A stretch of DNA of 64,000 bases from Anaerolineae bacterium (GTDB lineage Bacteria > Chloroflexota > Anaerolineae > J036 > Brachytrichaceae): NCBI GenBank assembly GCA_947476335.1, contig CANJQH010000002.1, positions 22,768 to 86,767 on the forward strand, written 5' to 3'. The notes under the pieces are model-generated. The model did no database searches. It was given only the letters and a program-made list of their open reading frames with translations, and had not been told where the DNA came from. This document shows positions 11,411-51,469 of this stretch, one piece after another. The translations under genes and the position numbers were made by a program. Numbering within the stretch: the stretch's first letter is position 1; the number at the start of each line of letters is the position of its first letter.

Positions 11411-11527
11411 GTAACTACTCAGGCCCAAATCAGTATTTCCCGCAAAACACGCAATTCCTTCCCCCGACGGGCGAAGGAATCGCGTGTTTCGCGTTGGAAA
11501 AATGGCTGGTCTGACCTGAGCAGTTGC
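11411..11527 (+). mobile_element. MITE-A copy 1 (diverged core)
   Basis: TIRs GTAACTACTCAGGCC / CCTGAGCAGTTGC. The inner hairpin has changes on both arms. Flanked by GAACATGG / GAACACTGG. Confidence 0.8.
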
Positions 11528-11566
11528 GAACACTGGCAAAAAAACGATTCAGCATGGGTGCGCGAT

Positions 11567-12544
11567 TTAGGGCACAAATTCATTCGTGAAGAACGCAGTG
11601 GCGTCCGTCTTCTGCTTTACCTGGCCCATTGCGACGAGCACGTCCTGGGTTTTCGACCATGCGGCTTCGCTTGATGTGCCGAGTTTGTCACCCTTCATGA
11701 GTTCGATCGTCGCCATGAGCACGGCTTTCTGCGTGGCGTCGTCGGCCTTCAGTCCCTCGACATATTTTGTCGAAATCGTCATGGCCGCATTCGGATCGGC
11801 GATCGTGTCTGCAACGCCGCGCAGAATCGCCTTGACCATGCCGCGCACCAGCTCAGGTTTTTCTTTCATGGTTTTTTCGTTGGTCATGATGCCATTGGCG
11901 ACCATATCGACCTGGTCGGACACGGCGAGCACATTCACCTTGAGGCCGTTCTGGCGCAGGACGACCGGCTCATTGACCATATAGCCGACGGCGGCGTCGA
12001 CCTTGCCCTGCTGCACGGCGGCGGCCTGTGTGAAGCCAATTTCCTGTGTGTTCACATCGGACTCAGACAGGCCGTTCGCTTCGAGGAAGGCGCGCCAGCC
12101 CACGTAGGTAGCGCCGAAGAAGCCGGGCAGGCCGACAGTTTTCCCTTTGAGATCCTGCGGTGTGGCGATGTTTTTCTCTGCCAGGCTGAAAATAGCGATT
12201 GGGAATTTGCGGTACCACTGGGCGACATATTTAACTGGCAGGCCCTGCGCGCGTGCGAGCACGACCTGTTCGCCGCTGACCACGGCGAAGGGCAATTCGC
12301 CGGCGCCGACGAGTTTGACGCCATCCGTTTCGAACTTGTAATCGAATTCGATCTCGATGCCTTCCTGCGCGAAGTAGCCCTTGTCGATGGCGACGTAGTA
12401 TGGCGCGTACTGTACGTTGGCGATATAGCCCATCGGCAGCCGCACTTTGGTGGCTGCGGTTTTGGCGGATGGTGCGGTTTGTGTGGCGCAGGCTGTGAGC
12501 AGCAGCGCAGCGATGGCGATGGAGGCAATTTTTATCAATTTCAC
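11567..12544 (-). CDS. ABC transporter substrate-binding lipoprotein, NMT1/THI5 (ThiY/RibY-like) family
   Basis: Lipoprotein signal LLLTAC, then PMGYIANVQYAPYYVAIDKGYF, typical of the NMT1/THI5-like SBP fold. Lies downstream of an FMN riboswitch. Confidence 0.8.
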   Translation of the reverse strand: MKLIKIASIAIAALLLTACATQTAPSAKTAATKVRLPMGYIANVQYAPYYVAIDKGYFAQEGIEIEFDYKFETDGVKLVGAGELPFAVVSGEQVVLARAQGLPVKYVAQWYRKFPIAIFSLAEKNIATPQDLKGKTVGLPGFFGATYVGWRAFLEANGLSESDVNTQEIGFTQAAAVQQGKVDAAVGYMVNEPVVLRQNGLKVNVLAVSDQVDMVANGIMTNEKTMKEKPELVRGMVKAILRGVADTIADPNAAMTISTKYVEGLKADDATQKAVLMATIELMKGDKLGTSSEAAWSKTQDVLVAMGQVKQKTDATAFFTNEFVP

Positions 12545-12646
12545 TTCAATACCCCTTTTACAACCTATAACTTACAACTTACAAACTTAAACTTTAAAAC
12601 TACAACTCACTAGAGTTTCGCAAACGCCGCACATACGGCGAAGGCT

Positions 12647-13462
12647 TCAGGAAAGCGCACCTCGATTTGTGCCGCGTACGACGGCGTGTTCGAGGCCGCG
12701 GATACCGGCGTGGATGGCCAGCGCCGTTGCGATGGTGGACACGATTGCGGCGAGTACGAGTGCGGTGTCGTAGAGGCCGGTCGCTTGGTTGATTAGAAAG
12801 CCGAGGCCGCGGTTGCTGCTGAGGAATTCACCGGTGAGCGCGCCGATCATCGACAGCGCGCCGGCGGTGCGCAGGCCGGCGAAAATGAAGGGCAGGGCGG
12901 CGGGCAGTTCGAGCCTGGTGAAGGTGTCCAGGCGGCTGGCGCCGAGCATGCGAAAGACGTCGTGCAGATGGGGGGGCACGCTGCGCAGGCCGCTGGTCAC
13001 GTTGACGACAATGGGGAAAAAGACGATGAGTGCGCAGACGAGCAGTTTGGCGCCGTAGCCGTTGCCGAACCAGATGAAGATCAGCGGTGCAACGGCAATG
13101 AGCGGGACGCCCTGCGAGGCGATGACGAGCGGCGAGATGAGCCGGTCGGCGAAGCGTGAATGGGCGGCTGGATAGCCGAGCAGCAGAGCGGCTGCGGTGC
13201 CGAGGAGCAGGCCGGGCAGCGCTTCACCGGCGGTGACGGCGATGTGCAGCGGGAGTGTGCCGTCGGTGGTGCGGGTGATGAACGTCTCGGCGACGACGAG
13301 CGGCCCGGGCAGGATGAAGGGTGGGTAGCGCAGGCTGAGCAGGTGCCAGACGACGAAGAAGGCGACGAGGCCGATCAGCGGTGCCGCGCGCAGCAACAGC
13401 GCGTTGGTGGCGCCGGCTCGTTTTTGCGCTTCGATTTTGTCTGACTTGTCAGAGACGTACAT
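12647..13462 (-). CDS. ABC transporter permease (RibX-like)
   Basis: BPD-type permease with 5-6 TM helices. ATG at 13462 chosen; the ORF-track start at 13603 would run into the riboswitch expression platform. Confidence 0.8.
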   Translation of the reverse strand: MYVSDKSDKIEAQKRAGATNALLLRAAPLIGLVAFFVVWHLLSLRYPPFILPGPLVVAETFITRTTDGTLPLHIAVTAGEALPGLLLGTAAALLLGYPAAHSRFADRLISPLVIASQGVPLIAVAPLIFIWFGNGYGAKLLVCALIVFFPIVVNVTSGLRSVPPHLHDVFRMLGASRLDTFTRLELPAALPFIFAGLRTAGALSMIGALTGEFLSSNRGLGFLINQATGLYDTALVLAAIVSTIATALAIHAGIRGLEHAVVRGTNRGALS

Positions 13463-13630
13463 CTGTGCCCTCGGTATAGGTGCTTCGGGGGCGATGTACG
13501 CAGATACAACGCTGCGCGGCTGCGATCTGCATGCACGAAAAGTATTCGTGGAACCGCAGTATTGCAGCAGTGCCTCGCTGAATGCAGCCGCTCGGCCATT
13601 CAATCCTCAGATCAAACGGCTACGTGCTGC

Positions 13631-49616: not shown

Positions 49617-50160
49617 TCTCCCCCTCCCACATCCGTTCCAGCGCGGTGAAATTGCGCTTGAAGCGTTCGGGGTTGCGCTTGAGGCTTTCGAGTTCGACGC
49701 GCGGCAGGATGTTGGCGAACGCCTGCTGCAGCTCGTCGAAATTGATCTGTTCGGCGCGCAGCAGCGCGAGTACGTCCTGGTAGTCGCCTTCGCGACCGCG
49801 TTCGATTTTGCTCAGCGAAGTGCTATATAGGTCGAAGTGATAGACGTCGACTTGGCCGAAGCGGCCGACGAATTTTGCGCGATCCCTCCAGCCGGAGGGC
49901 AGGGGGATGAAATCGCCCGGCGACGCCTGTTCGACATTGATCTGCAGCTCGTCTTTGAGCTGTTGAATCGTGCGTGCGAAGTCGGCTTCATACGTATCTT
50001 CGACTTCGTAGGTGATGTCGATGTCAAGCGATTGTTCGCGCAGCCCTTCGTAGACGAGCGTGGTACCGCCGACGAGATACAGCCGCGCTGGATGGCGAAA
50101 CGCCACGCCGAGCTTGACGAGGAAATAGTGCACGCGCAGGCGATCAATGGGTGGCCGCAT
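49603..50160 (-). CDS. minimal nucleotidyltransferase-fold protein (DUF6036-like)
   Basis: The LVGGTTLVYEGLREQSLDIDI pattern (hGG-x10-DhDh) of Pol-beta-type NTases. 185 aa. Confidence 0.6.
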   Translation of the reverse strand: MRPPIDRLRVHYFLVKLGVAFRHPARLYLVGGTTLVYEGLREQSLDIDITYEVEDTYEADFARTIQQLKDELQINVEQASPGDFIPLPSGWRDRAKFVGRFGQVDVYHFDLYSTSLSKIERGREGDYQDVLALLRAEQINFDELQQAFANILPRVELESLKRNPERFKRNFTALERMWEGESDSG

Positions 50161-50721
50161 TTAGTCTCCGCTCTCTTCGAAGGGTGTCTGCGTCGCGCAC
50201 GGCTGCTCACAGATCATGTCGATAACCTGTTCGTAGCTCGACCAGTCGTTGAACTCACTATCTTCGGTGAGCGCGCGCAGCCCGCGCTCACCATTCATTT
50301 CGTCGGCTGCAGGCAGGCCCATCTCGTGCACGAAGCGCTCGGGAATCAGCGGCGACGGACCGTGTGCGAGCAGCAATCGTGTGCGCCATAGCCGTTGCAG
50401 ATACGCCGCAGCGATGTACTGGCGCCGAATTTCGTCCCACGCTGCGTCGGGCACTTCTAGCTGCGACCAGCGCCGGGCCGTTGTACCTGCGATGTCGACG
50501 GTCTGGTGCTGGACCATGTCGGCAGCCGCTTCAGCGACTTCTGGGTGCCGCAGCAGCAGCCCGGCCAGCGCGAAGCGTAGACGCCCATCACGCGAAGATG
50601 CCATCCCGATGATGAGTTCACGATCGGTCAGGTGTGGCTCGTCGCCCTGCGGCGTCGGTGCCAGGTAGCAGATGTCGCGCCAGTGCAGAGCGGCGACGAG
50701 GTGCTCGCGCGGGAAGAGCAT
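50161..50721 (-). CDS. hypothetical all-helical protein, partner of the NTase gene
   Basis: 186-aa ORF whose stop abuts the NTase start codon with no gap. Contains RTRLLLAH (an R-x4-6-H pattern). Confidence 0.5.
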   Translation of the reverse strand: MLFPREHLVAALHWRDICYLAPTPQGDEPHLTDRELIIGMASSRDGRLRFALAGLLLRHPEVAEAAADMVQHQTVDIAGTTARRWSQLEVPDAAWDEIRRQYIAAAYLQRLWRTRLLLAHGPSPLIPERFVHEMGLPAADEMNGERGLRALTEDSEFNDWSSYEQVIDMICEQPCATQTPFEESGD

Positions 50722-50735
50722 GATGTGCGGTGCGC

Positions 50736-51323
50736 TTACGCGTGCGCCGCCTCGTAGGCTTCGATCTGCTCATGCATGCCGAGCACGTAGCCGATTTCGT
50801 CCACGCCGTTCAGCAGGCATGTCTTCGAGAACGAGTCGATCGGAAAGTTCACCGCACGGCCGTCCGGCAGCGTCAGCGTCTGCGCAGCCAGATCGATCGA
50901 CAGCGAAGTGTTCGGGTCCTCTTCGATAAGGCTGAACAGCTGTGCGTGCGTCTCTTTGTCGATGATGACCGGCAGCAGGCCGTTCTTCAGTGAATTGTTT
51001 TTGAAGATGTCGGCGAAGCTGGTTGAGATCACGGCGCGGAAGCCGTAGCCGACCAGCGCCCACGGCGCATGCTCGCGCGAGCTGCCGCAGCCGAAGTTGT
51101 CGCCGGCGAGCAGCACCTGGCGGCCTTTCATCTCGGGTTTATTGAGCATGAAGTCGGGCTTAGGCGAGCCATCACTGTTGTAGCGCCAGTCGCAGAACAA
51201 CTGTTCACCGAGGCCGAGCTTGTCGGTGACCTTCAGAAAGCGCGCCGGGATAATCTGGTCGGTGTCGACGTTCTCGGCATTCAGGGCGATGACTTTGCTG
51301 GAGATGGTGGGAAATTTAGACAT
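50736..51323 (-). CDS. leuD: 3-isopropylmalate dehydratase small subunit
   Basis: [12 protein letters not shown] and [17 protein letters not shown] motifs. ATG at 51323 preferred to TTG at 51332. Confidence 0.92.
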
Positions 51324-51357
51324 TTGGAACAAGTCAGAGCAGAGAGTCAGAGTAAAG

Positions 51358-51469
51358 GTAACTACTCTGGCCCAAATCAGTATTTCCCGCGAAACACACT
51401 ATTCTCTCCCCCGAAGGGGGAGAGAATAGTGTGTTTCGCGTTGGAAAAATGGCTGGCCTGAGTAGTTAC
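51358..51469 (+). mobile_element. MITE-A copy 8
   Basis: 1 nt different from copy 5. Flanked by GAGTAAAG on both sides (51350-51357 and 51470-51477). Confidence 0.9.

Follow-up and report, generated by a model that had tools for sequence, protein, structure and literature searches.

Is the short palindrome that recurs between the genes of this locus mobile DNA, or an RNA signal conserved at fixed places? The DNA in question (the window) is a stretch of 64,000 nt from an Anaerolineae bacterium (contig CANJQH010000002.1), and the nearest named relatives of its proteins are Anaerolineae, Thermoflexales and Ca. Roseilinea, the matches being Chloroflexi/Chloroflexota metagenome-assembled genomes (MAGs). 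An initial annotation had described in it a family of nested palindromes, called MITE-A, and had interpreted them as non-autonomous MITEs, miniature transposable elements with inverted repeats. We reach the same interpretation with a probability of about 0.8: MITE-A is a non-autonomous MITE family with a form of about 112 bp and a 61-bp form, it carries ends of the type found in the ISBst12 group of the IS66 family, and it belongs to a narrow, uncultured freshwater lineage of Chloroflexota (Anaerolineae-like). The non-autonomous MITE reading is supported by 8-bp target-site duplications (TSDs) and by empty sites in sister genomes.

The eight full copies annotated in the window, including the inverted one at 45288, were all recovered by a repeat search and by nhmmer with a profile built from these copies, alongside a MAFFT alignment. 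The 15-nt terminus GTAACTACTCAGGCC (two mismatches or fewer) has 14 matches in the window vs 0.03 expected by chance. They form the pairs 15834/15945, 25536/25647, 33178/33289, 45288/45399, 47347/47477 and 51358/51469, with left ends alone at 11411 and 13764. The 25-nt inner arm has ten matches with 0 expected. In the fold of the reference copy at 33178, the 15-bp outer stem leads through an internal loop to a 5-bp helix and on to a perfect stem of 25 bp that is closed by a 3-nt GAA loop; the predicted minimum free energy is -79.2 kcal/mol as RNA (z -15.6) and -48.8 kcal/mol as DNA (z -16). Folding thus bore out the nested architecture and the hairpin that takes in nearly the whole element. 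Full elements measure 111-131 bp and are nearly all hairpin, with no space for an open reading frame (ORF); derivatives of 61 bp also exist. The nhmmer profile scores 128 bits in one orientation and 70 bits in the other, so the element has a polarity, which resides in the asymmetric spacers separating the outer from the inner stem. Five copies had been described as nearly identical, and the alignment agrees: copies 15834, 25536, 45288 and 51358 differ from copy 33178 by 3, 2, 2 and 1 nt, respectively.

The flanks of 22 copies from the window and a related MAG were compared, a TSD being scored when at least 7 of the 8 flanking bases were identical, together with 88 shifted control comparisons. 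An 8-bp TSD was found at 13 of the 22 copies vs none of the 88 controls, in which the mean identity was 2.1 of 8 bases. The TSD sequence varies between copies and its length is fixed at 8 bp. Perfect duplications flank copies 15834 and 51358, and further perfect ones read AAAATAAC, GATTCGTC, GTTTTTCG, GGGATTTC, CGATAGGA and GATAGTAG. The nine copies in which the TSD is missing include three young ones.

Related genomes provide the second line of evidence. Among the matches listed by a pattern scan of GTDB genomes there was one MAG (Chloroflexota MiH-16apr19-249, GCA_964201495.1); its loci contain no fewer than 13 full copies and shorter forms besides, and across the leu region its DNA is ~87% identical to the window. 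Copies beyond the window, which the initial annotation had proposed to look for, are thus present in a related member of the Chloroflexota. Filled and empty sites could be compared between the window and its relatives at four places in all. The leuC/leuD spacer is 251 nt long and filled in the window vs 9 nt in L106 (a locus of the MAG), L093 and L094; the tal/iolD spacer is 163 nt and filled vs 13 nt in L112 (91% IolD identity); and the iolD/iolE spacer is 185 nt and filled vs 1 nt in L112. Empty sites in sister genomes, also proposed as a check, therefore exist for three window insertions. The fourth site is empty in the window: 3' of a DUF6036 gene an uninterrupted GATAGTA-type tract runs from 49554 to 49600, where the MAG carries a copy (L106:6307-6418) flanked by GATAGTAG on both sides. 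These comparisons show that copies were gained independently in two genomes that are ~87% identical. In L105, from a strain 99.4% identical to the window, the leuC/leuD copy is at the same place.

No copy was found in L093-L098 or L110-L112, in the plasmids, phages or viral contigs searched, or in 80 loci, 0.96 Mb in total, from relatives with 60-76% identity, which were gathered by a metagenome scan for IolD and are too distant for exact empty-site comparison. The initial annotation had pointed out that the same sequence at the same syntenic positions in distant relatives would indicate a cis-regulatory RNA. Such conservation was not seen, and because ~1 Mb of sequence from more distant relatives lacks the element, MITE-A is not a conserved syntenic cis-regulatory RNA. 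Nor does it match a conserved cis-regulatory RNA or an intrinsic terminator in other respects: it is absent at orthologous junctions, has no Rfam match and offers no terminator-like site. The TSDs, the filled and empty sites and the restricted distribution therefore indicate mobile DNA confined to a narrow lineage.

From which transposon family do the ends derive? Inverted repeats of IS66 elements begin with GTAA and give 8-bp direct repeats (PMC11946415). ISDge4 has a single ORF and belongs to the ISBst12 group, in which transposition was first observed only in 2026; it has the terminal inverted repeats (TIRs) GTGACTACTCAGCA and GTAACTGCTCAGCA and an 8-bp direct repeat (PMC12898284). As reference insertion sequences (ISs) we used the pHTA426 element of G. 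kaustophilus and four plasmid-borne relatives found by tblastn, all of them single-ORF IS66-family elements of 1.5-1.6 kb with perfect 8-bp TSDs. Their termini and TSDs are, respectively, GTAACTATTCAGCCC and GACGAGTT in G. kaustophilus pHTA426, GTAACTACTCAGCTT and CAAAATTT in B. thuringiensis, GTAACTACTCAGG(C/T)T (the end being compared as GTAACTACTCAGGCT) and ATCAGCGG in Leptolyngbya boryana, GTTACTGCCCAGGCT and CTTCATTC in Acaryochloris marina, and GTAACTATTCAGCG and GCCGCCGC in Paraburkholderia caribensis. Of the 15 positions of the MITE terminus, 14 are the same in the Leptolyngbya end, and the subtermini of the MITE (left ..GGCCTAAATCA, right ..GGCCAGCCA) parallel those of the cyanobacterial ISs (..GGCTTAAATCA and ..GGCTGAAGCA). 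Because termini and 8-bp TSD match this IS66 group, MITE-A has ISBst12-type ends, and by these two features, read from sequence, it can now be assigned to the ISBst12 group. In the literature searched, whose coverage is incomplete, no MITE derived from IS66/ISBst12 was found. An unrelated element of 147 nt with the same GTAACTACTCAG termini lies on a metagenome contig of a distant relative (L074:18604-18750; 64% IolD identity); its flanks prolong the inverted repeat (GATTTTT before and AAAAATC after the element) and form no TSD.

The window had been said to lack a transposase, and none was detected: Pfam revealed no transposase domain among ~50 window ORFs, which comprise ordinary metabolic and envelope genes instead, and when the ISBst12-type transposase of Geobacillus served as tblastn query, no IS66-like ORF emerged in the window, in ~1.1 Mb of loci or in ~19 kb of window flanks. 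The Acaryochloris transposase as protein query gave cyanobacterial matches only, and all fetched loci, when screened for pairs of TIRs with a spacing of 0.3-4 kb, yielded only neighboring MITEs. An IstB-like match at 37558-38451, considered as an IS21 helper, was rejected since it is a DnaC-like helicase loader beside DnaB and a DnaD-like gene.

Two derivatives bear on the role of the inner hairpin. Both are 61 nt long and lack it (L009:5680-5740 and L012:3653-3713) through a deletion between short GT microhomologies, and they lie at different loci within perfect 8-bp TSDs (GAACATTG and GTTTTATC). The inner hairpin is therefore not needed for transposition, and the 61-nt form is itself mobile. 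Among 18 copies, standard pairs occupy 95.7% of pair cells and the outer helix is 94-96% paired. Eight pairs have changes on both sides, all of them in the inner stem and none in the outer stem. These compensatory changes mostly separate subfamilies, namely the window type CACACTATTCTCTCC vs the MAG type CACGCTATTCCTTCC; a T-A to G-C change is found in the inner stem of copy 45288. The loop is GAA or TTC among copies of the same outer orientation, which suggests DNA-level exchange between the arms. Scans of the element gave no Rfam match and no promoter-like or terminator-like motif, and a reading as terminator or promoter was rejected because the motif is absent.

As to the mechanism, the MITE-A termini are of the type bound and cleaved by the single-ORF DDE transposases of the ISBst12 group, and insertion duplicates 8 bp of the target. 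The elements may be moved in trans by a transposase whose gene lies elsewhere in the genome or formerly did so; since no autonomous partner was found, it is only the ends and the TSD that point to such mobilization by an ISBst12-type enzyme. Insertions persist only in intergenic spacers, many of them AT-rich, some in short heptamer repeat tracts and several between genes of one operon. Copies inside operons would be transcribed along with their neighbors and give a very stable RNA hairpin, which, by analogy with Correia and ERIC elements, probably alters mRNA processing or stability. Such an RNA effect would be a side-effect of insertion and not the reason why the family exists.

Several observations weigh against this explanation. 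The longer element with the same TIRs around a transposase ORF, which the initial annotation had suggested as a search target, was not found: no autonomous ISBst12-like element with these termini turned up in the window, the ~19 kb of flanks, ~66 kb of MAG loci or ~1 Mb of related loci. Of the five window copies that look youngest, three (25536, 33178 and 45288) have no TSD, and two of these, 33178 and 45288, share inverted flanks, which simple cut-and-paste or copy-and-paste leaves unexplained. The two have 10-15 nt of flank in common, making up a shared repeat of 137 nt (33163-33299 and 45278-45414), and the flanking sequences to either side of the element make up an inverted repeat (TTTC before it, GAAATCTGAA after it). 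Copy 45288 has a (GAAATCT)n tract at one end, and this tract is the reverse complement of the ancestral AGATTTC at the opposite end. An inversion between the inverted copies 33178 and 45288 was considered as the cause of the missing TSDs; the flank swap that it predicts was not seen. The TSD-less copies may have arisen by gene conversion, by fold-back repair or from a variant with longer ends.

These flanks lend some weight to the alternative that the near-identity of the five copies reflects concerted evolution, that is, gene conversion or recombination of older insertions rather than a transposition burst. Besides the missing TSDs and the common flanks, the absence of the window subfamily CACACTATTCTCTCC from the MAG copies favors it. 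We nevertheless consider it doubtful, since the near-identical copies 15834 and 51358 have perfect TSDs and since relatives at 87-91% identity have empty sites where 45288 and 51358 lie in the window, so that these last two insertions are young in any case. The divergent copy 47347 also occupies a site that is empty in L112, and divergence is therefore no simple tracker of insertion age. Homogenization or non-canonical copying is conceivable for the three copies that have no TSD. The recent spread claimed in the initial annotation thus stands in part: transposition-driven spread is shown for some copies, as two of the five near-identical ones have a perfect TSD, but not for all, as three have none.

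Could the element instead have been recruited by the host? In that case MITE-A would be an exapted RNA structure that punctuates operons as an RNase III site, a 3' stabilizer or an attenuator. Pairing of the inner stem has been kept via compensatory changes (the eight two-sided pairs above), the hairpin is dispensable for transposition, and the copies inside operons lie 14-140 nt from gene ends. The orientation of the copies is also suggestive: in co-directional gene pairs 9 copies run against transcription and 3 with it, and when every copy is counted the ratio is about 14 to 5, but this excess does not reach significance (two-sided p about 0.06-0.15). Against these points, the same junctions occur without the element, with 1-13-nt spacers, in relatives at 87-91% identity, so that no conserved function is tied to any site. 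The compensatory changes are mostly inherited subfamily differences; DNA-level repair or template switching can keep palindromes symmetric, and the GAA/TTC loops point there; and the element contains no terminator-like or promoter-like motif. We regard this alternative as unlikely. A related version, in which the inner 25-bp hairpin is a module selected at the RNA level by the host or by the element lineage and serves as mobile 'operon punctuation' for mRNA decay or processing, would fit the transposition of the 61-nt forms, the compensatory changes and the tendency of copies to lie antisense inside operons; under it the heptamer-repeat spacers would be preferred landing pads or a by-product of insertion. 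We hold this version to be very unlikely. Nothing requires a host-selected RNA role for MITE-A, and, to judge by the empty alleles of sister genomes, any effect that it has on RNA is incidental.

The weakest alternative, a REP/BIME-type repeat mobilized by a RAYT (an IS200/IS605-like tyrosine transposase) and not a DDE-type MITE, could appeal to the palindromic, intergenic, high-copy nature of the elements and to the GTAG within their termini (..CTGAGTAGTTAC), a tetranucleotide that heads many REPs (PMC3733652), but it is rejected as highly improbable because of the 8-bp TSDs, REPs being 20-40 nt long without a TSD vs 112 nt for MITE-A, and the 15-nt termini agree base for base with the ends of ISBst12-group ISs, with no RAYT-like or Y1 transposase seen in the window.

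The individual copies occupy varied settings, and each is intergenic, as annotated, once gene starts are read correctly. Copy 11411..11527 (+) belongs to an older subfamily and has a 5-nt insertion in its right terminus and a degenerate TSD (GAACATGG / GAACA(C)TGG); it sits in an ABC transporter operon under a flavin mononucleotide (FMN) riboswitch, between the genes for the substrate-binding protein and the ATPase. The full but divergent copy 13764..13881 (+), whose inner stem is remodeled yet still paired, lies 12 nt upstream of that riboswitch. The riboswitch itself (13627-13751, minus strand, 96 bits) heads the operon, which comprises a permease (12647-13603), an NMT1/THI5-like binding protein (11567-12544) and an ATPase (10655-11380). 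The young subfamily includes copy 15834..15945 (+), which has the perfect TSD TTATTTTT and lies 3' of a TerC gene within a TTTACTC-type heptamer tract. At a distance of 100 nt from it there is a solo hairpin of 64 nt (16046..16109, +) like the MITE-A inner stem (CGAAACGCGCTAT...ATAGCGCGTTTCG) without recognizable termini; the initial annotation had not listed it, and it could be a decayed copy or, alternatively, an independent module. Another young copy, 25536..25647 (+), is located between methyltransferase and glycosyltransferase genes, both on the minus strand, and has no TSD (2 of 8 bases). The reference copy 33178..33289 (+), without TSD, is found between DUF218 and HD-domain genes, also both on the minus strand. 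The inverted young copy 45288..45399 (-) lies between a transaldolase-like gene and iolD and has no TSD; the full copy 47347..47477 (+), with a 20-nt internal tandem duplication, lies between iolD and an AP_endonuc_2 (iolE-like) gene; and the young copy 51358..51469 (+), with the perfect TSD GAGTAAAG, separates leuC and leuD. Several copies are therefore within operons, at leuC/leuD, on both sides of iolD and in the ABC transporter operon, and the distance from copies to neighboring gene ends is 14-140 nt. As to the two fragments annotated, one was confirmed as an inverted right-end fragment (25488..25523, minus strand, E = 2e-7) 12 nt from the full copy 25536; the other, around 37147-37183, proved only a weak match, a degenerate left-end remnant (37084..37183, minus strand, E = 0.009, 81% over 37 nt) 3' of a glmU-like gene and near tRNA-Gln. 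The high density reported holds in the window but is not uniform: the adjoining ~19 kb of the same contig (173.8 kb, ENA metagenome) has no copy, which gives about 1 per 10 kb over 83 kb.

Other repeats share these spacers. Tandem repeats with units of 7-13 nt, mostly AT-rich, fill many intergenic gaps (10533-10605, 11372-11396, 12558-12607, 13908-13943, 15793-15812, 15951-15982, 25663-25684, 45400-45421, 47484-47503, 49582-49621, 51470-51494, 51540-51578, 57575-57608 and 63465-63502), and MITE-A copies are often inside them. Their copy numbers vary even in comparison with the 99.4%-identical L105, and relatives at 87-91% identity have 1-13-nt spacers at the same junctions. A second small palindromic family (CTAAGTGAGTCGCCAGAACTT(T/A)TGG...) is present at 9600-9639, 14636-14675, 25691-25730, 37396-37432 and 54330-54371. 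Its member at 37396-37432 is a perfect 37-nt palindrome beside tRNA-Gln, and the family shares GAGTCGCCA with the tRNA 5' end. At the leuA/lysE junction the window spacer is ~45 nt with this second palindromic repeat vs 0 nt in the MAG locus L106, and the repeat looks like an inserted element, too. An inverted-repeat pair, CAGAGTAGAGAGTCAGAG / CTCTGACTCTCTGCTCTG, at 51494-51535 and 51325-51357 encloses the leuC/leuD MITE and heptamer repeats, which suggests that MITE-A landed there within another small palindromic insertion (nested elements). Within a gene, the 12-nt tandem repeat CGCCGACCGCGA occurs in ~34 copies at 61073-61481, inside the ORF 59569-62406 (+); this ORF codes for a large protein with RCC1 repeats and a cadherin-like domain, and the repeat would encode a long linker of tetrapeptide repeats.

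The results document a MITE family, active now or until recently, in an uncultured lineage of freshwater Chloroflexota and link it to the little-studied single-ORF ISBst12 branch of IS66. The insertions explain why intergenic and intra-operon spacers such as leuC/leuD are 10-25 times longer than in sister genomes, and probably also the breaks of MAG contigs at these repeats in this lineage. No new mechanism is revealed; the use of the family lies in annotation and in strain typing, for which the insertion sites could serve as strain-level markers.

Among known systems, the Correia elements of Neisseria (NEMIS/CREE) are alike in being very dense, intergenic MITEs of ~100-150 bp that are often co-transcribed and form long RNA hairpins. 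Correia transcripts are RNase III substrates and influence mRNA stability. Correia elements differ from MITE-A in duplicating TA, in having 26-bp TIRs with promoter and integration host factor (IHF) motifs and in having no assigned transposase, whereas MITE-A has an 8-bp TSD, unrelated TIRs of the IS66/ISBst12 type and no promoter-like motif. ERIC/IRU and further MITEs of enterobacteria or cyanobacteria (e.g. Nezha, MITEAba12 and MITEPsy1) are likewise small non-coding sequences bounded by TIRs, and they too have multiple intergenic copies, subfamilies and derivatives formed by internal deletion; their parent families are different (IS5, IS630, IS200/605-like and others) and their TSDs are of other lengths. 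REP/BIME repeats are also intergenic palindromes that are co-transcribed and may have a role in mRNA stability, but REPs are 20-40 nt long, have no TSD and are tied to a domesticated Y1 transposase, and MITE-A has none of these features. The ISBst12 group, to which ISBst12, ISDge4, cyanobacterial relatives and the 'ISGka4'-type element on G. kaustophilus pHTA426 belong, consists of ISs of 1.5-1.6 kb with a transposase of 450-485 aa (PF03050/PF13005), in contrast to the ORF-less 112 or 61 bp of MITE-A, the interior of which is an unrelated 25-bp perfect hairpin. In their ends the two are alike: the TIR GTAACTAYTCAG(G/C).. is common to both, 12-14 of 15 positions are the same as in the elements of B. 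thuringiensis and Leptolyngbya, the TSD has a length of 8 bp, and the left/right subterminal asymmetry resembles that of the cyanobacterial members.

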